Assembly (NCBI GenBank): GCA_045628285.1
Contig: JAZQPD010000067.1
Span: forward strand, 1-50,887
Direction of reading: 5' to 3'
DNA length: 50,887 bases
Source of the DNA: Bacteroidaceae bacterium
GTDB taxonomy: Bacteria > Bacteroidota > Bacteroidia > Bacteroidales > Bacteroidaceae
In this document: positions 30,672-50,887 of the stretch, one piece after another
Layout of the letters: the number at the start of each line of letters is the position of its first letter
How positions within the stretch are numbered: the stretch's first letter is position 1
Program-made: the position numbers and the translations under genes
The notes under the pieces: generated by a model
Databases searched by the model: none
What the model saw: only the letters and a program-made list of their open reading frames with translations
Told to the model about the DNA's origin: nothing

Positions 30672-30715
30672 CCTAAATTTACACACTGAAATTTACGATT
30701 AACCAGTTTGGAAAG

Positions 30716-32914: not shown

Positions 32915-32931
32915 AAAGTGAAGAGTGAAAA
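32911..32931 (+). repeat. Heptad array (3 units) starting at the stop codon of the phosphatase gene
   Basis: gtgaaaa|gtgaaga|gtgaaaa. The TGA stop (32912-32914) lies inside unit 1. Confidence 0.6.
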
Positions 32932-32958
32932 ATATTAACCCTCAAATACATTTGAATT

Positions 32959-33255
32959 ATGAAACTGACAATTATTGAGAAAGAGAACGTGATAGAAAGT
33001 AAAATAGTAGGTGCATTCGACACAGCCGCAACGAAGACTGTAGACATGCAGCCTCTGCTTGACAATGCCGACAAGAAAATCGTATTTGACTGCTCTGAAA
33101 TGGAGTTCATCACGTCTGCAGGTCTGCGGCTTTTGCTTGCTCTGAGCAAGGAATGTCTGAACAAAGGCGGCAGTATCGTGCTCAAAGGTGTGGCTCCTGC
33201 AGTCATGAGAGTATTCCAAGTTGCCGGATTCACGCAGTTCTTTACTTTCGAATAA
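32959..33255 (+). CDS. STAS-domain anti-sigma-factor antagonist (SpoIIAA/RsbV-like)
   Basis: 98 aa. The typical phosphorylatable-Ser context FDCSEMEFITSAGLRLLL. Lies 44 nt downstream of the phosphatase/kinase fusion. Confidence 0.8.
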   Translation: MKLTIIEKENVIESKIVGAFDTAATKTVDMQPLLDNADKKIVFDCSEMEFITSAGLRLLLALSKECLNKGGSIVLKGVAPAVMRVFQVAGFTQFFTFE

Positions 33256-33345
33256 AAATTTACGGCTAATTCACGGAACCTCGAGCTCTGCTCAGTTTAT
33301 GTTGAGTTTATCGAGGTACCTGAACATATCGAAGAAACAATATTA

Positions 33346-34728
33346 CTATTCTTCACTTACGCAGAGTATTTCTTCATCGCTGTAATGTGGACAATTTGTT
33401 GAAGGTGCAAACACATTGAGTTCTTTGTTTTTTGCATCTATGTTGCGCATCAACTGAGCCTTTACAGCCTTTACAGCCTGTTCGCAGTCCTGCGTTTCCT
33501 CTGGACGGAATGTATTGATTTCGTTGAACAACCTGATGAGTGACCTGCCAACAGCCCATGCAAGATTGACAGGTACGGCATTGCCTATCTGCTTGTATTG
33601 CTCGTTTATCGTACCTTGGAATTTCCAGTCATCGGGGAATGTCTGGATTCGTGCATACTCCCGGACTGTGAGTGGTCGTGTCTCTGTTGGATGACATCGT
33701 TCAGTCTGCTTCTGGCATGGAGAGCATGTGAGCGTCAGAGATGGTTCGTCTAATGACAGTCTCCGGGCCATTCCGGTCTTTCCTCCACCTAATAGCCAAC
33801 TGCCTCCCATGTATTCTTTTGCAATTTCGGTAGGGAGGTCTCGCCAATCACCGCCTTGGGGAACCAACTCCAATACTTGTCTCTTCTTCTCAGGATATTT
33901 ATTTCCTGCTGAAGTAGGAACATCTGTGTCATAAATCACGCTTTTATATAGGGCATCACGCAGTGTCATGATACGCCCGTATGGCGATGGCCATCGGAAT
34001 TTGACATGCTTTGCGAAATCATTACGTATTGCTATGAGAATCAAGCGTTCTCTCTTTTGAGGAACTTGATACATTATAGCTTTGAGTACATGTGGTTCTA
34101 CGAGTGTGTAACCAAGATCAATGATTGCATTCTTGATTGTCTCAAATGTGCGGCTTTCATCGTGAGAAGTAAGTCCCTTGACATTTTCGCCCAGAAATAC
34201 TTTAGGCTGTATCTCACGAACGGCTCGGCATAATTCAAAGAATAACGTACCTCGTGTGTCCTCAAATCCACCTTGCTTGCCTGCGTAAGAAAATGCTTGG
34301 CACGGGAATCCGCCTGAAACGAAGTCCACTTTACCACGCAATGGCGTGAAATCAATACTTCGCACATCACCTTCAATGACATTCCATTCAGGATGGTTTG
34401 CACGCAAAGTCTTACATGCCGACTTATCGAATTCATTCAACATGACATGTGAAAATCCTGCCATTGACAGTCCCAGTGCCAATCCACCGCCTCCGGCAAA
34501 CAACTCAACGGAAGTGAACTGTCGCTGCGGGGTTACGCCAAATTCGTCATTCCAATGATTGTTGACCATATCACGGATTTCAGAGATGTCTTGCAAGTCT
34601 TCCATATTGAATCCAGTGGTTCCGGATTCATTCTTTACTGTTGGATAGACTTGCTTTCTGCTCCAAGCCTGAACAGCTGCCAACGATGTGCCTGTTATTG
34701 CAGCAAGATTGCTTTCAGATATGAACAT
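33346..34728 (-). CDS. DNA (cytosine-5)-methyltransferase
   Basis: 460 aa. Motif I FAGGGGL, motif IV GGFPCQAFS, motif VI ENVKGL, motif VIII QKRERL, then QTFPDDW and motif X GNAVPV. There is an extra ~70-aa N-terminal and a ~70-aa C-terminal extension. The ATG overlaps the upstream ORF stop by 1 nt. Confidence 0.9.
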   Translation of the reverse strand: MFISESNLAAITGTSLAAVQAWSRKQVYPTVKNESGTTGFNMEDLQDISEIRDMVNNHWNDEFGVTPQRQFTSVELFAGGGGLALGLSMAGFSHVMLNEFDKSACKTLRANHPEWNVIEGDVRSIDFTPLRGKVDFVSGGFPCQAFSYAGKQGGFEDTRGTLFFELCRAVREIQPKVFLGENVKGLTSHDESRTFETIKNAIIDLGYTLVEPHVLKAIMYQVPQKRERLILIAIRNDFAKHVKFRWPSPYGRIMTLRDALYKSVIYDTDVPTSAGNKYPEKKRQVLELVPQGGDWRDLPTEIAKEYMGGSWLLGGGKTGMARRLSLDEPSLTLTCSPCQKQTERCHPTETRPLTVREYARIQTFPDDWKFQGTINEQYKQIGNAVPVNLAWAVGRSLIRLFNEINTFRPEETQDCEQAVKAVKAQLMRNIDAKNKELNVFAPSTNCPHYSDEEILCVSEE

Positions 34729-35438
34729 TATAATCCTCCCTTTGCTTTGATTTCATCTGCAAGTTCTTCTATCTTGCGCATGATTAACTCACTGCCATCA
34801 ATACCTTCTTCTTCAACAACCTCACCAAATGCTTTTGCAAGCTTGTTGTAGAAAGTCTTGTCGCCAGTAAGGTGTTCCCAAAATTCTACACCACAATAAA
34901 CCGGATAACTTGCGCGGATAGTCTTGTAGTTTGCTGACATATCTTTACCATAGAGAATGCCTACGACCATATCGTCCATCTGCAATGGAATGCGATCGAG
35001 GCGTGCCTTACCAATGAGTTTCTTGAAATGTCCCATAATCGTGATGACATCGTCCTTGTTTATTGTCTGCGGTCCTGCCTTGCATTGGCAATACTTCTTG
35101 CGACCATCAAGCGCATCTACAAATTCAATGTCTATTCCATCGATACCTGATGCACAGCCTGTAATTTCTGACAATTAGGAAATGAATATCTGAATATTTT
35201 GTCCGAAACTTGTATTGATGCTGGTTCCTAAGATTCGTGGGTAAAGCAGAGCTTTTGCCAATGATTCAGGTTCAGTATTACCACATAGGAATGATGCCAG
35301 GTAGTTTATCAAGAATGGATTAACATTGAAGTCCTTCAAATGCAAATTGTTAATGTTTTTCAAATGACTTGGAATGATTATCTTACGGAAATAGTCCTTT
35401 CCACTTGCAATGATGCTTTGCTTCTGCTCTTTGTTCAT
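34728..35438 (-). pseudogene. Type II restriction endonuclease gene interrupted by a single in-frame TAA
   Basis: ORFs 35175..35438(-) and 34728..35174(-) are in the same frame and are separated only by TAA (plus-strand tta 35175-35177): ..NIQIFIS*LSEITGCASGIDGIDIEFVD..KKYCQCKAGPQTIN. The second part has no ATG (the track begins it at TTG). A nuclease-like D...D-x-E...QCK block spans the second part. Translationally coupled to the C5 MTase. Confidence 0.6.
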
Positions 35439-35466
35439 ATTGATATTGTCTTTTTAATCTTTCTTG

Positions 35467-35474
35467 CAAAGATA
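35467..35474 (-). promoter_or_regulatory. Putative -7 box (TATCTTTG) for the R-M unit
   Basis: Lies ~30 nt upstream of ATG 35438. Confidence 0.45.
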
Positions 35475-35583
35475 ATAAAAAAAATAGAAATCAATAATAA
35501 TTTTTCCTTTTTTCTCCCTTCTACCTTCTCACTACATTTTCGTTTCCTTCGAGGAGGCAGATTGGGTTGGTAAGGGTGTTGAG

Positions 35584-35624
35584 GGTATTGGGGGCACCAG
35601 TAATACCCCGTGTTTTGAAGTCAA
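35584..35624 (-). repeat. Dispersed repeat copy, reverse orientation
   Basis: The reverse complement reads TTGACTTCAAAACACGGGGTATTACTGGTGCCCCC... Confidence 0.7.
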
Positions 35625-35902
35625 CTGACCTCGTGGCGCAATTCAATAATATTCTTAACATCTCGCAGAGGACAACTTGGGCTTGCAGCCCCATATTGCA
35701 TTGATGTCTGCTGACTGTAAGTCTTTTCTAGTCTTCCATCAGCATCCCTCACTGCAATATTGCGTACTTTGCAGGTACTCCAAGTTGTCTCGCAGAGAAG
35801 CAGAGTATCGCAGAGACTTGTACTACAGGCTTTTGCAATAGTCGGTTACAATCCGCATGGCTTTTGCGATACTTTGCTTTCTCTACGAGAAATTTTAACC
35901 TC

Positions 35903-35937
35903 TTGACTTAGTCATGCAAACACAGGATTTTGCAGGT
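35903..35937 (+). repeat. Dispersed repeat, degenerate copy with an 8-nt insertion
   Basis: TTGACTT[agtcatgc]AAACACAGGATTTTGCAGG. About 17 of 20 nt match copy 30456..30478 after the insertion. Confidence 0.5.
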
Positions 35938-35999
35938 GAGCCGGGTATTGGCATAGTTTTTTTCTGTCTTCTTTGGTGTAGATATTGGGAATTTTTATT

Positions 36000-36007
36000 T
36001 AAATTTG
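36000..36007 (+). promoter_or_regulatory. Putative -7 box (TAAATTTG) for the NRPS gene
   Basis: Lies 48 nt upstream of ATG 36055. It is too close to 36016/36019 for those to be the start. Confidence 0.45.
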
Positions 36008-36054
36008 CAGACTGATTGATGTGTAATTCGAGAATTTGTAAAAATATTAGAAAT

Positions 36055-39000
36055 ATGGACAATAAAACTTCACCGATTACATACGCTCAGCAGGGTGTGT
36101 ACATCGACTGTATCCTTGACCCTGAAAACCTTCGTTACAACAATCCGCAGTCCGTATCCATTCCGGCAGGCATCCCGGCAGAGGCAGTCTGCGATGCTGT
36201 ACGGAAGGTCTTTGAGTGTCATCCGGCACTCTTCTCCCACTTCGAGGACAGAGGCGGCTGTGCAACTCAGGTCTATACACCTGAGTGCCATGCCGAGGTC
36301 AGGATAACAAAGACTGAGGACAAGGATGTGGATGCCCTCAAGGCAGCCTTCATTAGAGTCTTCGACCTCGGGCAGGAACCTCTCTACAGGGCAGAGGTAC
36401 TCGATGCTCCGTCGGGAGTGACGCTTCTTGTTGACTTCCATCACCTCGTGTACGACGGCGCGTCGCTGAACATTCTGATGAACGAAATCTGTGCAGCTCT
36501 CGAGGGCAAGGAGCCAACAGCGGAAGTCACATCCTATGCCGACTTTGCAGAAGCCCAGCATGCAGACAAGACAACCCATGGATTCGACAAGCCCACCAAC
36601 CATAAATCCTATTACGACGGGCTGCTTGATGGCATCACGTCGACACAGATACCGTCCGACCTCAATGGCGGAGAAGGTATCCACAGGGAACATGTGCAGT
36701 TTGTAAGTACGCCCGACGTGATGGCGAAGGCAAAGTCGCTCGATACGGCACCGTCAGCACTGTTCATGGCGGCAGCATTCTATACACTCAGTCGCTACAC
36801 GAACACGAAGGAACTCTGCATGACCACCATCAGCAACGGCCGTCAGAACCCGATGACCAAGGGCATCGTGGGAATGTTCGTGAATACCTTGCCACTTGTA
36901 AGTAAGATAGGTGACACCAGCGTATGCGAGTACATCCACGGTGTGCGCAGTATGTTCCAGGATGTCCGTCAGCATGAGGAATATCCTTTTGCAACCCTCG
37001 TCAACGACTACGGCATCGAGCAGCATGTCCGTTTCACATATCAGTACGGTACTTTTGGCAATACATTCCACGTAAACGGAGAGGACATGAAGGCAGAAGC
37101 CATGCGTGCCAACAGCCATACGTTCCCGTTTACCATCACGATAAGCAATATTGACGACAAGCCAGCCATCGTCATCAACTACGACACAGCAAAGTATTCC
37201 GCAGACCTCGTAAACCGTTTTGCCGAGTCGATGGATGCTGTAGTATCGCATTTCCTTGAGGAGCCCGATGGCAAACTGCTTTCAGTATCCATTATGAGCG
37301 AGCGTCAGCATGCCGAACTGGCAAATATGCGCCAGACGTGCATCGACCATTCTGCAGTCCGTTTCCCACTATTCCACAAAAGCCTTGAGTACTGGGCAGA
37401 ACAGACACCAGACGCAACTGTCATCATTGCCTGCAACGAGACACTGACTTACCGTCAGTTCAACGGGAAGGCAAATGTCCTCGCACATGCCTTGATGAAT
37501 AAGGGAGTGGTACGTGGTGACCGCATCTGTCTGTTGCTGCCTCGCAAGAGCTGGCATCTCATAGCCATGTTCGGTGTGATGAAGACTGGTGCAGCCTACA
37601 TCCCTTGCGACCCGGAATATCCGGCAGAGCGCATCAGGCTCATCACCGACGACAGCCATGCCCGCTATGTGATTACCACCAAGGACAAGATGGGCGACTA
37701 TGGTGCCAGGGCACTTGACGTGGAGGTGTTGTTGAATGATGATTCGGCAGGCTCACCAACCAACTATAGCAACCCTGATGTGGAGGTTTCGCCGGATGAC
37801 CTTGCATACCTTATCTATACCTCAGGTTCCACAGGCCGTCCGAAGGGCGTGATGCTTCGCCACATAGGCATCTGCAACTACCTCACCGACCACGAGGAGA
37901 ACCGGCATTTCCATGCACTGGTGAATAACTGCAAGACCATGCTCTGCATCACTACGGTCAGTTTCGACCTCTCGCTCAAGGAAATCGGCTCATCTCTCTA
38001 CAACGGCATGACACTCGTGTTTGCCAACGAAGACCAGGTCAACGACCCGCAGGCATTGGCCAATCTGATGACTGCAACGAACGTGGATGGTTTCAGTGGC
38101 ACCCCTTCACGCCTGAAGATGTTCCTTGACCTTCCAGACTTCCAGAACGCATTGGCAAGATGCAAGTTCATCGTGCTTGGCGGAGAGAAATATCCTCCGA
38201 CACTTCTGCCTCAGATAAAGGCACTTGCTCCTGGTGCACGCCTGTTCAACACATACGGACCGACGGAAATCAGTGTCAGCTGTAACGGCAAGGAACTGAC
38301 ACACGCCGACCACATCACTATCGGCCGTCCGTTGCTGAACGTAAAGGAATATGTGGTTGACGACGACCTTAATGAACTGCCTGTAGGTGTGACAGGAGAG
38401 TTGCTCATCGGTGGTCTGGGTGTTTCAGCCGGATACAACGATCTGCCAGAAAAGACGGCAGAGGCATTCATAGACTATAATGGAGAGTGTTGCTACAAGT
38501 CGGGAGACTATGCCTACTGGAACGCAGAAGGCGACGTAGTCATCCTTGGCCGTAAGGACCACCAGATAAAGCTCAACGGACTGAGAATCGAACTCGGAGA
38601 AGTGGAGACAGTGCTCAACCGCCAGCCACAAGTGAAGGAAGGCGTGGTGATGATTAGAAATGTGGAAGGTCACGACCACCTTGTGGCATATTATGTCCCT
38701 GCCACGTCAGATGCAGAGGCTGACCTCGTTGGCACATTGAAGGAACAGATGGGCAAGAGTCTCACTCACTATATGGTTCCTGCCATCTTCGTCAGGATGG
38801 ATAAGATGCCAATCTCTCCAAACGGCAAGACCGACCTCAAGGCTCTGCCACAACCGGTCATCGAACTCTCGGAAACCGAGAAGGTCATGCCGACGACAGC
38901 CGACGAGCAGTCCCTCTACGACATCGTTGCGGAAATCGTAGGCAATGGCAACTTCGGAATCACGACCAACCTTGTCGGTGTAGGACTGACTTCCCTGCTT

Positions 39001-42000
39001 GCCATACGGCTTTCAGTGTTCGTGAATGGCAGGATGAACGCATCACTTTCCGTACGTGACATACTGAAATATCCAACCATCAAGGAACTGGCCACCAAGC
39101 TGCAGCGCACAGACCATGGTGCAATGAAGCATGCTGCAAATCAGTCGGCACCGCTTTCGTTCTCCCAACTTGGCATTTATTCCGAATGCATCAGTTCTCC
39201 AGATGACATCCAATACAACATACCGGTATGTATCCGTCTGCCTCAGGGCATCACGACAACAGAGGCTAAGGCTGCCTTGGAGAAGGTGTTGGCTGCACAT
39301 CCATTCGTCTACAATCATTTCCAGGACGACGACAATGGCGATGCATACCAGTGTCTGATGGAGAACAAGTCGGCAGAGATTCCCATAGTCACTATGACCG
39401 GGCAGGAACTGGAACAGGAAAAGAAATCCTTTGTACGTCCGTTCGCATTGAAGGAAAGCCCGCTCTTCCGTCTGAAAGTTGTGGACTGTGATTCTTCCGT
39501 ATATGTCATGTCCGACTTCCACCATCTCGTCATGGACGGAGGCTCGTACGACATATTCTACCGGCAGTTGTGTCAGGCTCTTGACGGAAAGGAACTGGAA
39601 ACAGAGCAGTACGACTACTACCAGTTCGTTGCCGACCAGAAGATTGACGCGGCTACAGAGCAGTTCTTTGCCGAACAGTTGGGCCAGATTGAGGAGGCAT
39701 CAGCATTGCTGCCCGACAGATATGATGGTGACGACAGCCATCGTCAGGCTGAAGTGACAGTTCCTACAGACTTGCAGGCTGCTCAGGCCAAGTGCAAGCA
39801 ACTGAACATCACTCCTGCAGCACTGTATCTTGCAGCAACTGCGATTGCTGTCAGCAAATATACCGCTGAGGAGACCGTAGGCATCTGCACAGTCTCGAAT
39901 GGCAGAGGTAACCTGCAGATAGCAAACACATTCGGAATGTTTGTGAACACACTGCCATTAGTGAGCAATGCCGATACAAGCCTGACTGTAGATGACTATC
40001 TGAGGAAAACTGCCGGTACGTTTGTCGACACCTTGGCAAATGAAGATTATCCATACGGCAAGGTGGTTGAAAACTTCGGCTACATTGCCAGCATATTGTA
40101 TGCCTACCAGGTAGGTGTCCTCAACAAATACAGTTGCAGCAAGGGTGAACTGACTATTCAGAAACTTGAACTCCAGAAAGCCAAGTTTCCAGTTTCCGTG
40201 CTGATTGAGGGCAGTGTGGAGCAAGGTGGTGTCATCAGGATTCAGTATGACGAAAGCCTTTTCACCCCCGACATGATGAAGGGCTTTGCCGCTGCCGTTC
40301 AGCATATAGCAGCCGACTTGATTGTGACTGAAAGGATGAGCGATGTCAGCGTATGCACCGACGAGATGATTTCACTCCTTGACTCCTTCAATGTGAACCG
40401 ACTTGCAGTTTCAGCCGAAGAAGATGCCGGTGAGACCGTGCTGTCGCTCTTCCAAAGAACAGCCCTACAGTATCCGGACAACATCGCAGCCGTATTCAAG
40501 GACAGGAAATATACATATAGGGAACTTGACGAACTGACAGATAAGATTGGTGGAGATATATACAATAAGGTAAAGGACTGTGGCAAGGCAGAACCTGTAG
40601 TGTCCATACTCATTCCGAGAAACGAATATATCTTCATCCTTCCTCTTGCAGCCATGAAGGCAGGATGTGCTTATCAGCCGCTCGACCCAAGTTATCCGCA
40701 GGAACGACTGAACTTTATGGTGAAGGATGCCGATGCAGCACTGCTCATTGCCGACCCCGGACTGAAGGATATCATCAGCGGATACGAGGGCGAGGTAGTG
40801 CTCACCAGTGACCTGGAACATTCAAACTCCTTTCCTTTGAGGGAAGGGCAGGGGTTAGGCCAGCCTCTCACTCCTCAGAGCCTCTTCATTCTCCTCTATA
40901 CATCAGGTTCGACGGGTGTGCCAAAGGGAGTTATGCTCGAGCACCAGAATCTCATGGCATTCATCAAGTGGTATCGTCGTTATTATAACCTGAAACCTGA
41001 ACATAATGTGGCAGCGTATGCTTCGTTTGGTTTCGATGCCAACATGATGGACCTCTATCCCGCATTGACCACAGGTGCTACGGTCTATGTCGTTGCCGAA
41101 GAACTCCGACTCGACCTCGTGGCTCTCAATGACTATTTCGAGGCAAATGCCATCACGCATAGTTTCATCACCACTCAGGTGGGAGTCCAGTTCCTCCAGA
41201 ACACCGACAACCGCTCTCTCAAGCACCTCAGTGTAGGTGGCGAGAAACTGGTCAGTGTGGATTCTCCGAAGAATTACTCGTTGCACAATGGCTATGGTCC
41301 TACGGAATGTACAATCTTCACGACCACCATGCCTGTAATGAAGAAGGAATCCAATATCCCTATCGGCAAACCTACAGACCTGCTGGATTGTTTCGTGATG
41401 GACAAGCATCTTCACCGACTTCCTGTAGGTGCAGCCGGTGAACTGGTTGTCGCTGGCAAACAGGTAGGTCGTGGTTATCTGAACCGCCCCGACAAGACAG
41501 CCGAGGCATTCTTCACACTCAATGGTGAGCGTGCATACCACACTGGTGACATCGTACGTTACCGTCAGGACGGAAACATCGAGTTCGTAGGCCGTAAGGA
41601 CGGTCAGGTGAAGATTCGTGGTTTCCGCATCGAACTGAAGGAAGTGGAAGCCGTAATCCGTGACTTCGCAAGTATTAGGGACGTAACCGTTCAGGCATTC
41701 GACGACCCTAACGGAGGCAAGTTCATAGCCGCATACATTGTCAGCGATGAGGCTGTCGACATAGATGCATTGAATCAGTTCATCCTCGACCAGAAACCAC
41801 CTTACATGGTACCTGCAGTGACCATGCAGATAGAGAAGATTCCGCTCAATGTGAACCAGAAGGTCGACAAAAAGTCCCTGCCGAAACCAGAACCAAAGAC
41901 AAGGACTGGCAGCGGTGATGCACCTGCGGCTCCACTCAACGCATTGGAAACTCAGCTCAAGGCCATCATAGCCTCTGTGACTGGCACCGAGGACTTCACG

Positions 42001-45000
42001 ATAACAGATGTACTTGGATACATAGGCCTCACATCAATCTCAAGCATCAAACTTGCAACACTCATCTACAAGAAGTTTGGTGTGCAAGTCAATGCAAAGA
42101 CCCTTGCAAGGGCTGGTTCCCTGCAGAGCATTGAGAATGAAATCCTTGAGGTGTGGATGAACGGTAACGGAAACGAAAACGAAAACAAAAACGAAAACGA
42201 CGGAAACTCATCGGCATCAGCTCCTCTGACGTATCCGCAGACTGGTGTGTATCTCGACTGCATGAAGAATCCGGGCACTACTCTCTACAATGTGCCAGTC
42301 AGGTTCACATTCGCCAAGAATATCACTGTCAAGGAACTTCAGGATGCTATCAGAGCAACAGTGGACAACCACCAGAGTTTTCGACTCACGTTTGCAACTG
42401 TCGATGGTGAGATACGTCAGATTCTCAACAACGACATTCCTGTGGAAGTTCCTGTAAGCAAACTGTCCGACAGCGAATCAGATGCTTACGAGCACGACTT
42501 CGTACGTCCGTTCAATCTCGCCCAGGGACCGTTGTTCCGCTTTGAAATCGTGGAGACTGAGAACCGCTTGCATCTCTTCATTGACATCCATCACCTTGTC
42601 ACCGACGGAGGTTCCATTGATTTGATCATACGCGAAATCACGGCACGCCTCAATGGCGAAGAGACGGAGAAGGAAGACTACCCATACATACAGTTTGCCA
42701 CCAGCCAGAAGGCAGCTGAAGGTAGTAAGGAATACATGGCAGCGAAAGCATTCTTTGATTCCCGCCTTGCTTGCTGTGAAGGAGCAAGTGAGATTACAGC
42801 CGACCTGCCAAAGAACGACTCTGCAAACCATACCCTCGGACGGAGTGTTTGCCCGATTGATATAGCTCCTGTAGAGACATTGGCAAGGCAACTCGGAGTG
42901 ACACCGATGAGCGTGTGCCTTGCTGCGACATACTACACCGTGAGCCGATTCGTCAACAGCAGGCAAGTCTATCTCGGCACCATTTCCAACGGTCGGAGCA
43001 ACTTGCGTACATACAACACTACGGGTATGTTCGTCAACACTCTTGCACTGAGCGGTGAGATTAAGGAACAAACCGTCAGCGACTTCATCACGGAGACTGC
43101 CCAGAACTTCACCGACACCATCACCCACGAGCAATATCCGTTCGCACAGATTGCTGCCGACTACGGATTCAAGCCAGAAATCGTGTTTGAGTATCAGGTA
43201 GGAGTCCTCGAAAATCATATTGTGCGTGGTGAGCAGACAGCATTGAAGGGACTCACACTCGATCTTGCCAAGTTCAAGATGAAAATCAGTATCGAAGGAG
43301 CTCCTGATGGAGGACACCAGGTGCGAATCGGATATGACGAAGCATCCTATTCACCAGAACTTGCAGCAAGTTTTGCTGAATCAGTATGTGCCGTCATCAG
43401 CCATTTTGCAGGTAGTCCTCAGGCACTTGTCAAAACTGTATCTATCATGAGCCAGGCTCAGGCACAGCAAGTCGGTAAACTCCATAACATTGCTACTGCC
43501 CCAGTCACGAGCCAGCTTTTTTACGAACCAATCGAAAAGTTTGCCGAGATACAGCCCGACAAGACCGCACTCATTGCTGTTGACCGCACACTCACATATC
43601 GTGAGTTCAATGCAGAAGCCAATCGTGTGGCTCATGCACTCATGGCTCGCGGCGTGAAGAAAGGCGACCGCGTCGTTGTCCTCCTGCCGCGTACCAGTGC
43701 CGTGATGCTCACTATTTTCGGTATCAGCAAGACCGGTGCTGCCTACATCCCTTGTGACCCTGAATATCCTGCTGACCGCATCAGTCTCATCACCGAAGAT
43801 TCCGAAGCGGCATACGTGGTCACCACCAAGGACAAGATGGGCGACTATGGTGACAAGGCACTCGATGTGGAGGAGTTGCTGAGCCCTTCCCTTCCGGGAG
43901 GGGATGGGGTAGGCTCCAATCCTAATGTTGACGTATCACCAGATGACCTCGTATATCTCATCTACACATCAGGTTCAACAGGCCGCCCTAAGGGGGTAAT
44001 GCTTCGCCATGAAGGCATCTGCAACTATCTGCAGTGCCATCCAGGCAATCGTCACATCTATGCCATGGCAACGGAAGGCAGTTGTCTGTTGTGCGTTACC
44101 ACGCTCTCGTTCGACATGTCGCTCAAGGAATATGGCATGGCACTCTTCAACGGGCTCACACTCGTGCTCAGCGATGAAAACCAGAGCAATAACCCTGTAG
44201 AACTGGCTAACCTCTTCAAGCAGACAAGTGCCGACATATTCAATGCCACACCGTCGCGCCTGCTCAACTACATGGAACTCCCAGAGTTCTGTAATGCACT
44301 GCGCCAATGCAAGTGCGTGCTGAGCGGAGGTGAGGCATACAGCGACAAACTTCTTGCACGCCTGCACAAGCTGGGTATAAAGCACATCTTCAATACCTAT
44401 GGTCCTACGGAAATCACCGTATCGTCCAACTGTGCTGAACTGACGAATACCGACCAGATTACGATTGGTCAGCCATTGCTCAACTACACCGAGTTCGTAG
44501 TCGACACAGATGGCAACGAACTCCCTGTCGGTGTGGTCGGGGAACTCTACATCGGTGGTGTCGGTGTGGCAAAGGGCTACAACAACCTCGACAAGCAGAC
44601 CAGTGAACGCTTCGTGGACTACAAGGGCATACGCTGCTATCGTTCAGGCGACTATGCACGCTGGACTCCTGACGGACGTGTCGTAGTTCTCGGACGTATG
44701 GACAATCAGATAAAGCTTCGTGGTCTTCGCATCGAACTTGGAGAAGTGGAGGCTGCCATCTGCAAGGTAGAGGGTGTCAAGCAAGCCGTGGTCATGGTGA
44801 GGAAGATTGATGATGTGGAACATCTCACTGCCTACTACACAGCCGACCGTCGTATCGAAATCGAGGATATGAAAGCCCAAATCGGAACCACACTCACTCG
44901 CTACATGGTGCCTACTGCATATCTCCAGATGGATACATTCCCGCTCACGCCTAACGGCAAGACTGACATCAAGCATCTTCCAATGCCTCAATTGGCAAAG

Positions 45001-46446
45001 GTGGGTGGTGACTATGTTGCACCAAAGAACAAGGTGGAGGAAGATTTCTGCCATATCTTCGAAGGCATCCTCAATCTCGAGAAGGTGAGTGCCGAGGATT
45101 CATTCTTCGACATTGGCGGTACGTCGCTCACCGTCACACGGGTAATCATTGAAGCAAAGAACCGTGGATACGAGGTGGCATACGCAAGCGTATTCAGTCA
45201 TCCATCTCCGTGCAAACTTGCAGAATTCCTCGGCTCCACAACCACCGAGACCGATCCTGATGCCGACATCAGGGACTTTGACTACGAGCCAATACGTCGG
45301 CAACTGGAGCGCAACACATTGGATGCCTTCCGCAATGGAGAGCATCGTCCTTTAGGCAATGTCCTGCTTACTGGTGCTACAGGATTCCTCGGCATACATG
45401 TGTTCCGCGAAATCATTGAGAACTATCCTGATTCAAAGATATGGTGCCTGCTCCGTGGAAAAGGTGGGGTATCTGCCGAACAGAACTTCCAGAACATGCT
45501 CTATTTCTATTTCGAAACGGCATGGCAGGAACTCTTCGGCAAGCGGATATTCGTCATCGAAGGAGATGTGACCGACAGGATTGAAGCTCCTGACGACATC
45601 CAGACCGTCATCAACTGTGCCGCCATAGTGAAGCACTTCTCTGAAGGGACAGAAATCGAAGACATCAACGTAGGCGGGTGCGTCAACTGCGTGGACTGGT
45701 GTCTGGAACACAATGCACGAATGATTCAGGTCAGCACGATGAGTGTCGGAGGATCAAGCGTGAACGGGTATCCGGCCATTACTAAACTCACGGAACAGAT
45801 GCTCTACGAAGGCCAGCGCATCCACAACCAGTACATCCATTCCAAGATTAAGGGTGAACGCTATGTACTTGATGCAATAGCCAGAAAAGGACTCGATGGC
45901 AAGATTATGCGAGTGGGAACCCTCTCTGCCCGTAATAGCGACGGTGAATATCAGTTGAATTTCAGTACCAACTCCTTCGTTGGCCGTCTGCGCCTGTACG
46001 GAATGCTGGGAGCCTTCCCTTATTCAAGCTACGAATACAAGGTGGAATTCTCGCCTATCGACGAGGTTGCCAAAGCCATAGCACTCCTCTCGCAGACACC
46101 GTCCGACTGCACCGTGTTCCATCCGTTCAACGACCATTTCCGCTATCTTGGCGATGTGGTCAAGGCTTGGGCATCACTGGGACATGACGTACGGTATGTA
46201 GAAGACTCAGAGTACCACCGTCTCATTCAGGAGGCAGAGAAGGACGAGAAGTTCCAGAAAGCACTGTCAGCACTGATCGCATACAACAGCAAGACGACCA
46301 GCGATGTCATACGTCCTCTGGAGAAGAACAACTCCTACACCATGCAGGTACTGCTGAGAATGGGATTCCGCTGGTCAATGACGGAATCGAGTTACATCGA
46401 TCAGTTCTTCAGGATTATGTACGAATTCAGATATTACAGTCTGTAG
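36055..46446 (+). CDS. Non-ribosomal peptide synthetase, three modules with terminal reductase (C-A-T-C-A-T-C-A-T-R)
   Basis: Uninterrupted ORF (the raw track starts at 36016; ATG 36055 is preferred because a -7 box lies at 36000-36007). It has 3 HHxxxDG condensation motifs, 3 adenylation core sets (YTSGSTGxPKG, NxYGPTE, A10 Lys), 3 carrier Ser motifs, and a C-terminal TGATGFLG ... YIHSK reductase. Confidence 0.95.
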   Translation: MDNKTSPITYAQQGVYIDCILDPENLRYNNPQSVSIPAGIPAEAVCDAVRKVFECHPALFSHFEDRGGCATQVYTPECHAEVRITKTEDKDVDALKAAFIRVFDLGQEPLYRAEVLDAPSGVTLLVDFHHLVYDGASLNILMNEICAALEGKEPTAEVTSYADFAEAQHADKTTHGFDKPTNHKSYYDGLLDGITSTQIPSDLNGGEGIHREHVQFVSTPDVMAKAKSLDTAPSALFMAAAFYTLSRYTNTKELCMTTISNGRQNPMTKGIVGMFVNTLPLVSKIGDTSVCEYIHGVRSMFQDVRQHEEYPFATLVNDYGIEQHVRFTYQYGTFGNTFHVNGEDMKAEAMRANSHTFPFTITISNIDDKPAIVINYDTAKYSADLVNRFAESMDAVVSHFLEEPDGKLLSVSIMSERQHAELANMRQTCIDHSAVRFPLFHKSLEYWAEQTPDATVIIACNETLTYRQFNGKANVLAHALMNKGVVRGDRICLLLPRKSWHLIAMFGVMKTGAAYIPCDPEYPAERIRLITDDSHARYVITTKDKMGDYGARALDVEVLLNDDSAGSPTNYSNPDVEVSPDDLAYLIYTSGSTGRPKGVMLRHIGICNYLTDHEENRHFHALVNNCKTMLCITTVSFDLSLKEIGSSLYNGMTLVFANEDQVNDPQALANLMTATNVDGFSGTPSRLKMFLDLPDFQNALARCKFIVLGGEKYPPTLLPQIKALAPGARLFNTYGPTEISVSCNGKELTHADHITIGRPLLNVKEYVVDDDLNELPVGVTGELLIGGLGVSAGYNDLPEKTAEAFIDYNGECCYKSGDYAYWNAEGDVVILGRKDHQIKLNGLRIELGEVETVLNRQPQVKEGVVMIRNVEGHDHLVAYYVPATSDAEADLVGTLKEQMGKSLTHYMVPAIFVRMDKMPISPNGKTDLKALPQPVIELSETEKVMPTTADEQSLYDIVAEIVGNGNFGITTNLVGVGLTSLLAIRLSVFVNGRMNASLSVRDILKYPTIKELATKLQRTDHGAMKHAANQSAPLSFSQLGIYSECISSPDDIQYNIPVCIRLPQGITTTEAKAALEKVLAAHPFVYNHFQDDDNGDAYQCLMENKSAEIPIVTMTGQELEQEKKSFVRPFALKESPLFRLKVVDCDSSVYVMSDFHHLVMDGGSYDIFYRQLCQALDGKELETEQYDYYQFVADQKIDAATEQFFAEQLGQIEEASALLPDRYDGDDSHRQAEVTVPTDLQAAQAKCKQLNITPAALYLAATAIAVSKYTAEETVGICTVSNGRGNLQIANTFGMFVNTLPLVSNADTSLTVDDYLRKTAGTFVDTLANEDYPYGKVVENFGYIASILYAYQVGVLNKYSCSKGELTIQKLELQKAKFPVSVLIEGSVEQGGVIRIQYDESLFTPDMMKGFAAAVQHIAADLIVTERMSDVSVCTDEMISLLDSFNVNRLAVSAEEDAGETVLSLFQRTALQYPDNIAAVFKDRKYTYRELDELTDKIGGDIYNKVKDCGKAEPVVSILIPRNEYIFILPLAAMKAGCAYQPLDPSYPQERLNFMVKDADAALLIADPGLKDIISGYEGEVVLTSDLEHSNSFPLREGQGLGQPLTPQSLFILLYTSGSTGVPKGVMLEHQNLMAFIKWYRRYYNLKPEHNVAAYASFGFDANMMDLYPALTTGATVYVVAEELRLDLVALNDYFEANAITHSFITTQVGVQFLQNTDNRSLKHLSVGGEKLVSVDSPKNYSLHNGYGPTECTIFTTTMPVMKKESNIPIGKPTDLLDCFVMDKHLHRLPVGAAGELVVAGKQVGRGYLNRPDKTAEAFFTLNGERAYHTGDIVRYRQDGNIEFVGRKDGQVKIRGFRIELKEVEAVIRDFASIRDVTVQAFDDPNGGKFIAAYIVSDEAVDIDALNQFILDQKPPYMVPAVTMQIEKIPLNVNQKVDKKSLPKPEPKTRTGSGDAPAAPLNALETQLKAIIASVTGTEDFTITDVLGYIGLTSISSIKLATLIYKKFGVQVNAKTLARAGSLQSIENEILEVWMNGNGNENENKNENDGNSSASAPLTYPQTGVYLDCMKNPGTTLYNVPVRFTFAKNITVKELQDAIRATVDNHQSFRLTFATVDGEIRQILNNDIPVEVPVSKLSDSESDAYEHDFVRPFNLAQGPLFRFEIVETENRLHLFIDIHHLVTDGGSIDLIIREITARLNGEETEKEDYPYIQFATSQKAAEGSKEYMAAKAFFDSRLACCEGASEITADLPKNDSANHTLGRSVCPIDIAPVETLARQLGVTPMSVCLAATYYTVSRFVNSRQVYLGTISNGRSNLRTYNTTGMFVNTLALSGEIKEQTVSDFITETAQNFTDTITHEQYPFAQIAADYGFKPEIVFEYQVGVLENHIVRGEQTALKGLTLDLAKFKMKISIEGAPDGGHQVRIGYDEASYSPELAASFAESVCAVISHFAGSPQALVKTVSIMSQAQAQQVGKLHNIATAPVTSQLFYEPIEKFAEIQPDKTALIAVDRTLTYREFNAEANRVAHALMARGVKKGDRVVVLLPRTSAVMLTIFGISKTGAAYIPCDPEYPADRISLITEDSEAAYVVTTKDKMGDYGDKALDVEELLSPSLPGGDGVGSNPNVDVSPDDLVYLIYTSGSTGRPKGVMLRHEGICNYLQCHPGNRHIYAMATEGSCLLCVTTLSFDMSLKEYGMALFNGLTLVLSDENQSNNPVELANLFKQTSADIFNATPSRLLNYMELPEFCNALRQCKCVLSGGEAYSDKLLARLHKLGIKHIFNTYGPTEITVSSNCAELTNTDQITIGQPLLNYTEFVVDTDGNELPVGVVGELYIGGVGVAKGYNNLDKQTSERFVDYKGIRCYRSGDYARWTPDGRVVVLGRMDNQIKLRGLRIELGEVEAAICKVEGVKQAVVMVRKIDDVEHLTAYYTADRRIEIEDMKAQIGTTLTRYMVPTAYLQMDTFPLTPNGKTDIKHLPMPQLAKVGGDYVAPKNKVEEDFCHIFEGILNLEKVSAEDSFFDIGGTSLTVTRVIIEAKNRGYEVAYASVFSHPSPCKLAEFLGSTTTETDPDADIRDFDYEPIRRQLERNTLDAFRNGEHRPLGNVLLTGATGFLGIHVFREIIENYPDSKIWCLLRGKGGVSAEQNFQNMLYFYFETAWQELFGKRIFVIEGDVTDRIEAPDDIQTVINCAAIVKHFSEGTEIEDINVGGCVNCVDWCLEHNARMIQVSTMSVGGSSVNGYPAITKLTEQMLYEGQRIHNQYIHSKIKGERYVLDAIARKGLDGKIMRVGTLSARNSDGEYQLNFSTNSFVGRLRLYGMLGAFPYSSYEYKVEFSPIDEVAKAIALLSQTPSDCTVFHPFNDHFRYLGDVVKAWASLGHDVRYVEDSEYHRLIQEAEKDEKFQKALSALIAYNSKTTSDVIRPLEKNNSYTMQVLLRMGFRWSMTESSYIDQFFRIMYEFRYYSL
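36070..37340 (+). other. NRPS condensation domain C1 (N-terminal, starter position)
   Basis: HHLVYDG at 36439-36459. The domain starts within ~5 residues of the N-terminus (SPITYAQQGVY). Boundaries approximate. Confidence 0.8.
37345..38850 (+). other. NRPS adenylation domain A1
   Basis: LTYRQFN (A1 motif), YTSGSTGRPKG from 37816, FDLSLKE (A4), NTYGPTE (A5), GELLIGG, YKSGD, GRKDHQIKLNGLRIELGEVE, A10 PNGK with Lys codon 38827-38829. Confidence 0.85.
38900..39110 (+). other. NRPS carrier (T/PCP) domain T1
   Basis: VGVGLTSLLAIRL. Putative phosphopantetheinyl Ser codon 38992-38994 (GLTS rather than the canonical GGxS). Confidence 0.7.
39148..40425 (+). other. NRPS condensation domain C2
   Basis: Starts APLSFSQLGIY. 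HHLVMDG at 39520-39540. Confidence 0.8.
40430..41885 (+). other. NRPS adenylation domain A2
   Basis: YTYRELD, YTSGSTGVPKG from 40897, FDANMMD (A4), NGYGPTE, GELVVAG, YHTGD, GRKDGQVKIRGFRIELKEVE. The A10 region reads NQKVD, with Lys codon 41860-41862. Confidence 0.85.
41938..42150 (+). other. NRPS carrier domain T2
   Basis: LGYIGLTSISSIKL. Ser codon 42034-42036. Confidence 0.7.
42220..43500 (+). other. NRPS condensation domain C3
   Basis: Starts APLTYPQTGVY. HHLVTDG at 42589-42609. Confidence 0.8.
43504..44985 (+). other. NRPS adenylation domain A3 (paralogue of A1)
   Basis: LTYREFN, YTSGSTGRPKG from 43963, FDMSLKE (A4), NTYGPTE, GELYIGG, YRSGD, GRMDNQIKLRGLRIELGEVE, A10 PNGK with Lys codon 44959-44961. 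Confidence 0.85.
45028..45240 (+). other. NRPS carrier domain T3
   Basis: FFDIGGTSLTVTRV. Ser codon 45124-45126 (canonical GGxS). Confidence 0.75.
45343..46443 (+). other. NRPS terminal thioester reductase (R/TD, SDR fold)
   Basis: VLLTGATGFLG (TGATGFLG = 45370-45393), CLLRG, INCAAIV. YxxxK as YIHSK (Tyr 45832-45834, Lys 45844-45846). Confidence 0.85.
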
Positions 46447-46452
46447 AGGATA

Positions 46453-46487
46453 TTAGGCCATTGGCTATTAGACCTTAGCCATTGGTC
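46453..46487 (-). repeat. Heptad array, reverse orientation (5 units)
   Basis: ttaggcc|attggct|attagac|cttagcc|attggtc is the reverse complement of GnCnAAn-type units. It begins 7 nt after the NRPS stop. Confidence 0.7.
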
Positions 46488-46513
46488 CGCAATGTGAAAG
46501 AGTAAAATAAAAA

Positions 46514-46583
46514 GCTAACGGCTAATGCCTAATAGCTAACAGCCAAATAATAACGGCCAATGTCTAACGGCTAACGGCTCAAA
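46514..46583 (+). repeat. Heptad array, forward orientation (10 units in perfect phase)
   Basis: gctaacg|gctaatg|cctaata|gctaaca|gccaaat|aataacg|gccaatg|tctaacg|gctaacg|gctcaaa. Confidence 0.85.
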
Positions 46584-46595
46584 AAATTAGGAATT

Positions 46596-49004
46596 ATGAA
46601 GAAATTTTTTGTATTTTTTATTGCCGTGCTCTCCTGCGGGTGCATGATGGCTCAGAGAAATGTCGTTTCGCTGAACGACGGGTGGCTGTTTCGGATAGGC
46701 CACAATGATATTGCAGGTGCTATGAAGGCATCGGAGTCAGACGGATGGAGCCGGGTGGATGTTCCGCACGACTTCCAGATTGAACAGCCGTGGGTAGCTC
46801 CGGATGCTTCTGAAAGAGCCGACAACAGTGATGCCGGAGCGAATATAAAGAGTCGCCTGTCGTCGAGAGGATTCAAGGAGATGGGCGAAGGATGGTATGT
46901 CAGGTCGTTCACTCCGTCGGACGACATGAAGGGCAAGAGGCTCCTGCTTGATTTCGAGGGTATTATGTACGTTGCCGACGTATATGTGAACGGCAAGAAG
47001 GTAGGAGGGACCGACTACGGATATGTGGGGTTCGAGATTGACGTGACGGGGGAACTGGTGATGGACCGTCCCAACACGATTGTCGTCAGGGCAGACACCG
47101 GGGAACCAAAGATGTCAAGATGGTACACGGGTGGAGGACTGTTTCGCAATGTCAGTCTGGTGGCAATTGATCCGCAGATGAGTTTCGTGCGCCATCCGCT
47201 GAGTATCGTGACTTCCGAAAACCGCAAGGTCGACATCACGGCAGAGGTGCGGATTGCCACGAAAGACGACCAGGCACAGCTGCGTGTGACTCTCACCGAC
47301 CCCCAGGGTGGAGTGGTGAGCAGCGATGTCTATTCCCTCAAGCGCAACAGGAACTATCGTTCGCAGGAACTGAAGATACCGACCATCGACATCAGCGATG
47401 CAAAACTATGGGACTGCGAACATCCGAACCTCTATGAGGCAAAGGTGGAACTGCTCCGCACCGACGGCAGTGTGGCCGACATCGTCACGAAGCAGTTCGG
47501 AATCCGCACCATCGACATCAACCCACGGCAGGGACTCCTCCTCAACGGCAGGAAAGTCCTTCTGAAAGGCTATGCCAACCACCACACCCTCGGTGCCCTC
47601 GGCGCTGCTGCCTATCCGAGAGCCATCGAGAAGAGGATAAAGCTGATGAAGGAGTTCGGCATGAACCACATCAGGACATCGCACAACCCATATTCCGAGG
47701 AATTCCTCAACCTGTGCGACAAGTACGGCATACTCGTGGTCGACGAACTCTACGACAAGTGGAACGACCAGTACGTAGGAGGCGGCAGGGCACATTTCGC
47801 CGACCTGTGGATGGGCCATGTGGAGGAATGGATAAGGAGAGACAGATGCCATCCATGCGTCGTGATGTGGAGTCTGGGAAATGAGCTGCAGTCCTACAAC
47901 GACATGCCTTTCAACGACTTCGGAGTGACACAGTACAAGCTCATGAAGGCTGTGGTCAACAGGTACGACAGCACGAGGAAAGTGACCGTAGCCATGCATC
48001 CGCGTTACAGGAACTGGGAGACCACCGACCTGCCTTGCGACCTTGCCATGGTGACCGACGTACAGGCATACAATTATAGATATATGTACTTCCCCGGCGA
48101 CGGCGAGAAATTCCCGTGGATGACCTTCTACCAGAGTGAGGCAGCCGTGTCAGCCATGGGCGAGAACTACTTCTCCATGGACCTCTCCAAGGTCATCGGA
48201 CTTGCCTACTGGGGAGCCATCGACTATCTCGGCGAGTCACAGGGCTGGCCGGCAAAGGGATGGGTGCAGGGAGTGTTCGACATAGCCCTCGAACCCAAGC
48301 CGAAAGCCTACTACATGAAGTCATTCTTCACCGACCAACCACTCGTGCACATTGCAGTCACCGAGACCCGTGGCAACCAGATGTGGAACGGCGTGCAGAC
48401 AGGCAACGACGGCCAGTCCGACCACTGGAACCGCAAGGCTGGCGACCGTCTGGAAGTGACCACCTACACCAATGCCGACGAAGTCGAGCTGCTTGTTAAC
48501 GGCAAGAGCCTCGGAGTGAAGAAGAACGACAAGGGCAGCGCAAAGATGAGAAACCAGATACGATGGAGCGACGTAGAGTATGCCGACGGAAATATCGTGG
48601 CCATAGCCAGGAACGGCGGTAAGGAAGTTGCCCGCCACCGGATCGAGACCACCGGCAAGGCCGTACGTCTGGTGATACAGTCCGACAACCCCGACTGGAA
48701 GGCCGATGGCGAAGACCTCCAGCACCTGAGAGTCATCGCCGTCGACAGCAAGGGTCGCAGGGTGATGGATGCAGTAGGCGAGGTGAAAGTCCAAGTCACC
48801 TCCGGCGATGCCCGGCTGGTGGCAATGAGCAGCGGCAACCAGTATTCCGACGAACTCAACGTCGTTGACAGCAGGAAACTCTTCAACGGTTCCGTCCTCG
48901 CCATCCTCCGTGCAGGCACCACAGCCTCCAGTGTCACCCTGACCGCCTCGTGCCAGGGCCTGAAGAGCGGAAAGATTGAGCTGGCAACTCACCCCGCAAA
49001 ATGA
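46596..49004 (+). CDS. Glycoside hydrolase family 2 (beta-galactosidase-like)
   Basis: 802 aa. Signal peptide, N-terminal sugar-binding block (SLNDGWLFR), the TIM-barrel block IRTSHNPYSEEFLNLCDKYGILVVDE, and the acid/base region MWSLGNE. Confidence 0.85.
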   Translation: MKKFFVFFIAVLSCGCMMAQRNVVSLNDGWLFRIGHNDIAGAMKASESDGWSRVDVPHDFQIEQPWVAPDASERADNSDAGANIKSRLSSRGFKEMGEGWYVRSFTPSDDMKGKRLLLDFEGIMYVADVYVNGKKVGGTDYGYVGFEIDVTGELVMDRPNTIVVRADTGEPKMSRWYTGGGLFRNVSLVAIDPQMSFVRHPLSIVTSENRKVDITAEVRIATKDDQAQLRVTLTDPQGGVVSSDVYSLKRNRNYRSQELKIPTIDISDAKLWDCEHPNLYEAKVELLRTDGSVADIVTKQFGIRTIDINPRQGLLLNGRKVLLKGYANHHTLGALGAAAYPRAIEKRIKLMKEFGMNHIRTSHNPYSEEFLNLCDKYGILVVDELYDKWNDQYVGGGRAHFADLWMGHVEEWIRRDRCHPCVVMWSLGNELQSYNDMPFNDFGVTQYKLMKAVVNRYDSTRKVTVAMHPRYRNWETTDLPCDLAMVTDVQAYNYRYMYFPGDGEKFPWMTFYQSEAAVSAMGENYFSMDLSKVIGLAYWGAIDYLGESQGWPAKGWVQGVFDIALEPKPKAYYMKSFFTDQPLVHIAVTETRGNQMWNGVQTGNDGQSDHWNRKAGDRLEVTTYTNADEVELLVNGKSLGVKKNDKGSAKMRNQIRWSDVEYADGNIVAIARNGGKEVARHRIETTGKAVRLVIQSDNPDWKADGEDLQHLRVIAVDSKGRRVMDAVGEVKVQVTSGDARLVAMSSGNQYSDELNVVDSRKLFNGSVLAILRAGTTASSVTLTASCQGLKSGKIELATHPAK

Positions 49005-49104
49005 GCAAAGGAGAGGAAGTAAAGAAGGTAGAGCGCAGATTGGCATCTGACAAGAAAAAGGTGCTGCCGAAGAAATAATCGAGATCAAGAAATATGGCGT
49101 TAGT

Positions 49105-50379: not shown

Positions 50380-50381
50380 CT

Positions 50382-50762: not shown

Positions 50763-50837
50763 ACACGATATAAAAGATATTTGACATTCCACAAGGCTTG
50801 CGGAAATCTATCCTGCATCGTTTATGAAAATTTTCCA

Positions 50838-50845: not shown

Positions 50846-50887
50846 CAAAGGATACAGAAATTATAGCAAGCATTATGCAACAATATC

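Follow-up and report, generated by a model that had tools for sequence, protein, structure and literature searches.

Here we show that a 50,887-nucleotide contig of a Bacteroidaceae bacterium (JAZQPD010000067.1 of GenBank assembly GCA_045628285.1; the whole stretch is referred to below as the window) carries an intact gene for a three-module nonribosomal peptide synthetase (NRPS), in which condensation (C), adenylation (A), carrier (T) and terminal reductase (R) domains follow one another in the order C-A-T-C-A-T-C-A-T-R. Taking all evidence together, we consider it fairly probable that this is a working enzyme, that its product is an N-capped tripeptide released as an aldehyde, and that it belongs to a family linked to a partner-switching relay. 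The enzyme is of a known kind, the short reductase-terminated NRPSs, and varies from it in (i) its three modules, (ii) an N-terminal C domain that appears to be of elongation type, and (iii) the partner-switching and MATE exporter genes found around its relatives.

Architecture of the synthetase

The gene is a single frame of 3,463 codons with zero internal stops, which begins with ATG 36055 and ends with the stop codon at 46444-46446 on the forward strand, in agreement with the uninterrupted frame of ~3460 codons in the original prediction, which had been made from the sequence alone. By simple arithmetic, the odds of so many stop-free codons in random sequence are about (61/64)^3463, or roughly e^-166. 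The mechanically called open reading frame (ORF) starts at a TTG 13 codons 5' of this ATG; because homologue N-termini in a family alignment coincide with ATG 36055 (consensus MxxKTSxITYAQQGVYIDC), the ATG was taken as the start.

Pfam searches, made with the full-length protein as well as with ten segments of it, fixed domain order and borders. Three Condensation domains, three AMP-binding domains (with AMP-binding_C), three PP-binding domains and one NAD_binding_4 domain were recovered, all far over gathering scores and in the same order as had been proposed from the motifs (Table 1). The motifs themselves were reproduced exactly where they had been placed: HHxxxDG at 36439, 39520 and 42589 (residues 129, 1156 and 2179), YTSGSTGxPKG at 37816, 40897 and 43963, the A10 lysines (K925, K1936 and K2969), the three carrier serines, TGATGFLG at 45370 (residue 3106), and YIHSK at 45832 (residue 3260, comprising Y3260 and K3264). 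In an alignment of 18 orthologues (54-71% identity), all three HHxxxDG motifs (in C1 residues H129, H130, D134 and G135), the A10 lysines, the carrier serines, and the TGxxGxxG and YxxxK motifs of the reductase are invariant. The protein thus holds C, A and T domains with their active-site motifs and is an NRPS. Since the linkers are short (15 aa between T1 and C2, 26 aa between T2 and C3) and the A domains measure ~480 aa, there is no space for epimerisation (E), methyltransferase (MT), heterocyclisation (Cy) or thioesterase (TE) domains, whose absence had also been noted in the original prediction.

Table 1. Positions of the synthetase, its domains, neighbouring genes and the accessory island in the window.
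Feature	Position	Residues	Strand	Basis
NRPS gene, 3,463 aa, C-A-T-C-A-T-C-A-T-R	36055..46446		+	uninterrupted ORF, Pfam, homologue N-terminus
C1, HHLVYDG	36064..37320	4-422	+	PF00668 2.7e-58
A1	37384..38829	444-925	+	PF00501 + PF13193; code by GrsA-PheA alignment
T1, Ser980 (codon 38992)	38911..39096	953-1014	+	PF00550 2.9e-9
C2, HHLVMDG	39142..40323	1030-1423	+	PF00668 1.8e-49; top PDB match TycC6
A2	40468..41862	1472-1936	+	PF00501 + PF13193
T2, Ser1994 (codon 42034)	41953..42138	1967-2028	+	PF00550 1.8e-7
C3, HHLVTDG	42217..43470	2055-2472	+	PF00668 2.4e-59
A3	43534..44961	2494-2969	+	PF00501 + PF13193
T3, Ser3024 (codon 45124)	45049..45231	2999-3059	+	PF00550 1.3e-7
R, thioester reductase (short-chain dehydrogenase/reductase type)	45367..46443	NAD_binding_4 3105-3342, C-terminal subdomain to end	+	PF07993 2.9e-30
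dCache-PP2C (SpoIIE-type)-HATPase_c_2 (RsbW-type) membrane sensor, 732 aa	30716..32914		+	Pfam; related-locus homologues
STAS (anti-sigma-antagonist type), 98 aa	32959..33255		+	PF01740, PF13466; tblastn to related clusters
C5 DNA methylase, intact	33346-34728		-	Pfam
EcoO109I-like endonuclease, one in-frame stop after codon 88	34728-35438		-	Pfam; translation
Accessory island, at least 20.4 kb	30451..50887			blastn vs sister-genome contigs L085-L088; right end beyond window

A herbivore-gut family and its neighbourhood

A protein search returned 1,936 relatives at E<=1e-50, and when one genome for each GTDB species was scanned, 336 stretches were found to encode relatives. About 35 clusters (formed at 90% identity) share both the length of ~3,460 aa and the layout C-A-T-C-A-T-C-A-T-R, and are 58-70% identical to the window protein at 100% coverage, with the nearest at 70%. 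The window protein itself has no exact database record, and none of the matches among GTDB representatives reaches 100% identity. These three-module forms, of which the window NRPS is a full-length orthologue, come almost entirely from metagenome-assembled genomes (MAGs) of horse faeces, with hosts assigned to Bacteroidales, Bacteroidaceae, Candidatus Minthomonas equi, Ca. Cryptobacteroides and Ca. Alistipes equi. Two-module forms (C-A-T-C-A-T-R), which are ~47% identical (44-54% over modules 2-3), are found in rumen MAGs of Prevotellaceae, Muribaculaceae, Bacteroidaceae and Paludibacteraceae, with relatives also in Selenomonadaceae. A census of the rumen has counted 5,346 NRPS clusters, with Bacteroidota among the three dominant phyla and with expression of Prevotella clusters (PMC8241843). 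NRPSs are not rare, then, in uncultured herbivore-gut Bacteroidales, and the earlier view of the gene as an uncommon find of undescribed architecture has to be given up in the face of the relatives in 336 GTDB-species stretches, the ~35 clusters of the same layout, the rumen census, and a precedent in Chitinophaga (see below).

Within the family, modules appear to be exchanged. The third A domain carries the code DMKN[LM]GTVSK in the sub-clade of the window protein and DLGSVGTMGK in most horse-gut proteins, two family members (P0003 and P0006) carry an A1-type code in A3, and at least four different A3 codes occur across the family. Together with third-module exchange between orthologues (P0003, P0006, P0007-P0036), this pattern indicates that recombination at the level of modules is frequent.

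The synthetase had been described as stand-alone, a description that does not survive comparison with related loci, as the two genes upstream of it on the same strand belong to a conserved cluster. The first encodes a sensor in which a dCache domain lies between two hydrophobic, transmembrane segments and is followed by a PP2C phosphatase domain (SpoIIE, 9.7e-47) and a HATPase_c_2 domain (5.3e-21); the second encodes a STAS protein (2.1e-13) with the conserved serine motif ..TSAGLR... PP2C, STAS and HATPase_c_2 are thereby encoded together, as in gene sets of the RsbU/V/W type. Among loci with enough flanking sequence, the gene immediately preceding the synthetase is a STAS gene in 13 of 16 loci of the three-module type and in 42 of 55 of the two-module type, and a MatE gene follows downstream in 16 of 19 and 46 of 53, respectively. 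The rumen layout, exemplified by locus L036, is a tight operon of [dCache-PP2C-HATPase_c_2]-STAS-NRPS-MatE, and in the horse-gut layout the phosphatase is without a kinase domain and HATPase_c_2 is fused to the C-terminus of MatE. Across the loci compared in this respect (L002, L025, L036 and L089-L091), HATPase_c_2 forms part of the PP2C sensor in L036, as it does in the window, is joined to the C-terminus of MatE in horse-gut and Selenomonadaceae loci, and occurs in both fusions in L091. A Selenomonadaceae MAG has the same gene set in another order, plus a phosphopantetheinyl transferase (PPTase) gene, around a two-module relative; one further locus has the set plus a PPTase gene around a relative of the order A-T-C-A-T-C-A-T-R. 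None of the loci looked at closely has a sigma factor gene inside the cluster.

That the gene set is conserved across phyla and that its kinase domain migrates between partners argue for a relay functionally tied to both synthetase and exporter, and the pattern of kinase-domain fusions suggests that partner switch and exporter are physically linked. In the cluster as it normally occurs in the family, a periplasm-sensing PP2C phosphatase, a STAS protein and an RsbW-like kinase domain accompany the synthetase and the MATE exporter, and an external signal would probably switch production or export through a partner-switching phospho-relay. The closest known counterparts in gene content are the RsbU/RsbV/RsbW and SpoIIE/SpoIIAA/SpoIIAB modules, which likewise bring together a HATPase_c_2 kinase, a PP2C phosphatase and a STAS protein of one domain that bears a conserved serine motif; the NRPS cluster differs from them in being without a sigma factor and in having its kinase fused to the phosphatase or to the MATE protein. 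A more specific conjecture, which we put forward tentatively and regard as rather doubtful, is that a sigma-independent partner switch exerts direct control over the MATE exporter or the synthetase in response to a signal from the periplasm or gut lumen. If true, herbivore-gut Bacteroidales and Negativicutes would have in common a system for signal-triggered release of peptide aldehydes. A literature search on partner switching with NRPS clusters returned nothing relevant among the papers accessible to it.

Predicted assembly, N-cap and release

Each A domain is expected to load one amino acid on its own carrier domain, and C2 and C3 would join the resulting three residues, all of which should be L since no E domain is present. 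Codes were read by aligning each A domain to GrsA-PheA, for which the GrsA sequence yields DAWTIAAICK at the canonical positions; as a control, hit proteins with the polymyxin-type code series yield DVGEISAIDK and DFWNIGMVHK, the textbook codes for diaminobutyrate and Thr. The codes are DLKSVGTVSK for A1, DAMFSGGIFK for A2 (DAMISGGIFK in a four-sequence alignment) and DMKNLGTVSK for A3. Equivalents of Asp235 and Lys517 are kept in all three domains, which should therefore load alpha-amino acids. The pocket of A2, whose code type is the commonest in the family and which is equivalent to module 1 of the two-module enzymes, looks hydrophobic. A1 and A3 are 57% identical, and their pockets are unusual and both have Lys at position 239. 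Assignment of their substrates by Stachelhaus code was abandoned, as we know of no code that matches either. The Glu code is DAKDLGVVDK, and from the likeness at Lys239 a polar or acidic side chain may be guessed for the A1 and A3 residues. This guess would agree, loosely, with ruminopeptin, the N-acyl Leu-Glu aldehyde of the Ruminococcus bromii rup pathway (PMC8518294, PMC12327764).

What precedes the first residue depends on C1. The original prediction had taken a C domain in front of the first A domain as the hallmark of lipoinitiation, and this argument is not upheld. Among solved structures, C1 is most similar to LgrA (3e-24) and TycC6 (1.5e-19), both elongation C domains, as is C2, and no C-starter chain among the solved structures matches C1 at E<=1e-3. 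Within the family, C1 reaches a median of ~250 bits with internal C domains, and the median is 133 bits with the C domains at the N-terminus of two-module relatives. The case that C1 is an elongation-type (LCL-like) domain is accordingly strong but not final, and the classical starter C domain of lipoinitiating NRPSs was rejected as an identity for it by both comparisons. Modules 2-3 of the window enzyme are the counterparts of modules 1 and 2 in the two-module forms; the extra module was joined at the front and brought an elongation-type C domain along. An N-cap is still plausible, and it accounts most simply for the conservation of a C domain at the N-terminus. Most likely C1 couples an acyl group, or another carboxylic acid, to the first residue, with an acyl carrier protein or acyl-CoA, encoded outside the window, as the presumed donor. 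Of the N-acyl tripeptide aldehyde originally predicted, the reductive release is well founded in R-domain homology, and the starter-C basis of the N-acylation has fallen away.

Elongation-type C domains normally use a carrier-bound donor, so that C1 might be fed in trans. In about 13 horse-gut three-module orthologues, an 820-aa A-T-TE protein is encoded directly downstream of the synthetase; its A domain is without the alpha-amino-binding Asp235 (code -VLHIGMGAK) and should therefore activate a non-amino carboxylic acid, which makes the protein a plausible candidate loader for C1. Relatives of ~3,000 aa start with such an A-T loader in cis in place of a C domain, and their first A codes also are without Asp235. 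The enzyme would then be a four-unit line, capped by a defined non-amino acid and not by a fatty acyl group. We regard this as possible but clearly less probable than the donor proposed above, given that tblastn finds no A-T-TE homologue in the window, that there is none beside the closest orthologues (L001 and L025, where an outer-membrane barrel and MatE are encoded downstream of the synthetase), and that the TE domain of the A-T-TE protein would lack an explanation. A 420-aa protein without a Pfam match is conserved beside the A-T-TE gene (L002 20412-24147, L003, L004 and ~10 other horse-gut loci); it has no window homologue by tblastn, and the 424-aa ORF at 49105-50379 is a different gene.

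That the chain ends in an NRPS thioester reductase, as had been predicted, is supported by PF07993, by the motifs and by the closest solved relatives. The T3-R portion is nearest to the PCP-R of Mru_0351 (6VTJ; 1e-66, 229 bits, 393 residues aligned), followed by the aldehyde-forming AusA-R (4F6C; 9e-38, 133 bits); MxaA (5.8e-11, 45 bits) and the mycobacterial Mtb-R (8.7e-5, 25 bits) match far more weakly. The homologous structures include 6VTJ, 4F6C, 4U7W and 4DQV. Reductive release by the terminal R domain is thus well supported by homology: with NAD(P)H, it would free the chain from T3 as a C-terminal aldehyde, possibly reduced on to an alcohol. No sequence feature tells aldehyde-forming from alcohol-forming R domains (PMC8024701), for which reason the aldehyde is favoured with the alcohol as a live alternative. 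A four-electron reduction to a peptide alcohol as the final product has precedents in NRPS R domains of the same fold (MxaA, Mtb-R, myxochelin) and in a Chitinophaga falcitidin NRPS that gives both aldehyde and alcohol (bioRxiv 10.1101/2021.10.30.466580). It is nonetheless an unlikely outcome here, in that the nearest characterised relative, AusA-R, forms an aldehyde and scores well above MxaA and Mtb-R (a difference that is only suggestive), and that characterised gut relatives release aldehydes.

Comparison with characterised systems places the predicted aldehyde among known chemotypes. N-acyl tripeptide aldehydes include leupeptin, the tyropeptins and the flavopeptins, which match the prediction in chemotype (acyl cap, three residues, C-terminal aldehyde). 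Guo et al. 2017 (Cell 168:517) reportedly described reductase-terminated NRPSs of gut commensals that yield dipeptide aldehydes and pyrazinones. Gut dipeptide aldehydes also figure, as cited work, in PMC8210680. These enzymes and the rup pathway resemble the window enzyme in being short NRPSs that end in T-R, in their anaerobic gut hosts, in having some members whose N-terminal C domain gives N-acyl products, and in an aldehyde that serves as a protease-reactive warhead; the window enzyme differs in its three modules instead of two, its uncultured Bacteroidales host, and its apparently elongation-type N-terminal C domain. AusA of Staphylococcus aureus shares the A-T-C-A-T-R logic and the R fold (NCBIfam model NF047350 aligns to residues 338-2026), but it has two modules and no N-terminal C domain, and its product cyclises to a pyrazinone. 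An assignment as AusA equivalog was rejected, the score of 1,889.9 bits lying below the NF047350 cut-off of 2,500 and the architecture being different.

The falcitidin-type NRPS of Chitinophaga is, by architecture, the likeness from within the Bacteroidota: one gene encodes the whole NRPS, which starts with a C domain and ends in a reductase. Its products are N-acyl pentapeptides with an aldehyde or alcohol end, which act as inhibitors of cysteine and serine proteases, and no conserved tailoring or transport genes accompany it (bioRxiv 10.1101/2021.10.30.466580). It differs in its five modules, its E domain, its annotated Cstarter, its aerobic soil genus and the fact that no partner-switching genes are reported for it. 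Mru_0351 of Methanobrevibacter ruminantium (6VTJ/6VTZ; PMC8024701), the closest solved T3-R relative, also belongs to a herbivore-gut organism; it differs in being archaeal and larger (its PCP-R comprises residues 3701-4187).

Genomic setting of the window copy and implications

The window copy departs from the family arrangement. Its STAS and PP2C sensor genes stand upstream on the same strand as elsewhere, at a distance: the gap between STAS and NRPS genes is 2,799 bp, where most three-module relatives have 8-155 bp. The gap is filled by a restriction-modification insertion (33346..35438; methylase and endonuclease in Table 1) on the opposite strand with a GC content of 0.41, compared with 0.50-0.52 in the synthetase, which splits the operon and parts the regulators from the synthetase. 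The pair of intact methylase and broken endonuclease may be an orphan-methylase remnant or reflect a sequencing error. Downstream, the NRPS gene is followed by a gene for a glycoside hydrolase of family 2 (GH2) instead of a MATE exporter, and tblastn finds no homologue of MatE or OMP_b-brl_3 anywhere in the window. The GH2 gene (46596-49004) has a GC content of 0.57 against ~0.50 and occupies the position of the exporter in relatives, which suggests a later replacement. No PPTase (PF01648) was matched among the window ORFs scanned; the window ends 4.4 kb downstream of the NRPS gene, and exporter and PPTase genes may lie beyond.

Both cluster and insertion lie in accessory DNA. Contigs of sister genomes (L085-L088) are collinear with the window from 22323 to 30450 at 85-92% DNA identity by blastn; collinearity ends at 30450, 265 bp 5' of the first cluster gene, and past the break these contigs continue with aroQ, a methyltransferase gene, rbfA and ftsX. 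Because the DNA from 30451 to the end of the window is absent at this position in sister genomes, the synthetase is accessory in this lineage. The sole promoter-like element before the NRPS gene is a weak -7-like element, TAAATTTG, at 36000-36007, with a TTTG 24 nt upstream of it, outside the usual spacing; neither a sigma-70-type site nor a terminator at the 3' end of the NRPS gene was found.

These features could be taken to mean that the gene is a stranded and possibly silent remnant, carried on an island, severed from its regulators by the 2.8-kb insertion, and deprived of exporter and loader: genes for MatE, the outer-membrane protein, the A-T-TE protein and a PPTase are all out of view, and no full promoter motif stands upstream. 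The intact 10.4-kb frame argues against long-standing decay and, with all catalytic residues in place, for selection that is recent or still at work; the genes for exporter and PPTase, moreover, may lie past the end of the window. We therefore judge a remnant to be quite improbable, although the copy may rely on genes elsewhere in the genome or be poorly expressed. Least probable of all is a C1 that is silent or structural, leaving a free-amine tripeptide aldehyde to cyclise or react like the dipeptide aldehydes that form pyrazinones: the donor gene is not in view and family members that start with an amino-acid A domain exist (e.g. P0043-P0049), but HHxxxDG is invariant along with many further positions of C1, the domain is as well conserved between orthologues as the rest of the protein (64-69%), and some 420 functionless residues are unlikely to have been kept over ~35 lineages.

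A working three-module synthetase with an N-capped tripeptide aldehyde as product remains the best explanation of the whole, and a number of points weigh against it. To our knowledge, no member of the Bacteroidales family has a characterised product, expression or substrates, and the codes of A1 and A3 are without a counterpart that we know of. C1 is not a recognised starter C domain, and the window holds no gene for an acyl donor. The operon is interrupted, 50.9 kb of sequence contain neither a visible PPTase nor an exporter gene, and the full bipartite promoter motif of Bacteroidetes is absent upstream of the NRPS gene. The association with partner switching is drawn solely from synteny and domain fusions, and the end state of the reductase is, as discussed, one that sequence features do not separate.

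The wider window fits the Bacteroidales setting originally proposed. It contains a SusC/SusD pair and a NigD-like protein, and its DNA polymerase I is 90% identical to the homologue of a 'Bacteroidales bacterium' MAG. Six matches to the promoter pattern of Bacteroidetes, TTTG-N17-23-TAnnTTTG, were counted against 0.8 expected (12715-12745, 16833-16864, 22307-22337, 23629-23663, 30387-30417 and 34056-34084), and four of the six matches lie just upstream of gene starts, including that of the C10 protease gene. This gene (12781-15159), named in the original prediction, is real: its product has a Peptidase_C10 domain (1.3e-61), an I69 prodomain and BspA-type leucine-rich repeats. A functional link with the NRPS, which had been offered as speculation, found no supporting evidence and was rejected, in that the two genes are 21 kb apart with a collinear core-genome segment between them, the protease gene lies outside the island, and of 84 related loci a single one has a C10 homologue close to its synthetase gene. 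The C10 gene ends a string of SusC, SusD and a 591-aa protein of no assigned function (6006-15159), a layout like that of a polysaccharide-utilisation locus with the protease as cargo.

Other features of the window are of less consequence. A tRNA-Gly(GCC) called by ARAGORN at 23366-23442 is probably a false positive, as it lies inside a chromate-transporter ORF (23013-23600) and has no Rfam match at gathering score. The ORFs at 16909-20439 (1,176 aa), 10872-12647 (591 aa) and 49105-50379 (424 aa) have no Pfam match. The DNA polymerase I (27337-29778, reverse strand) is short, at 813 aa, and neither it nor its nearest relatives have the 3'-5' exonuclease domain (PF01612) that is present in Bacteroidaceae homologues of 920-960 aa.

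Few microbiome metabolites have a defined action; the peptide aldehydes of gut bacteria, which inhibit proteases covalently, belong to these few and are so far known mainly from Firmicutes. By analogy with characterised relatives, a peptide aldehyde that targets proteases or serves in signalling is the likely role of the product. The window copy in itself adds little beyond the family, and the association with regulatory genes at family level is the more interesting lead. Prevotella NRPS clusters show higher expression in the rumens of less feed-efficient steers (PMC8241843). The gene described here represents a very large uncharacterised branch of Bacteroidales synthetases from horses and ruminants, with exchangeable modules and a conserved sensory switch, and the identification of even one product would give access to a family that matters for the ecology of herbivore guts and perhaps for feed efficiency.

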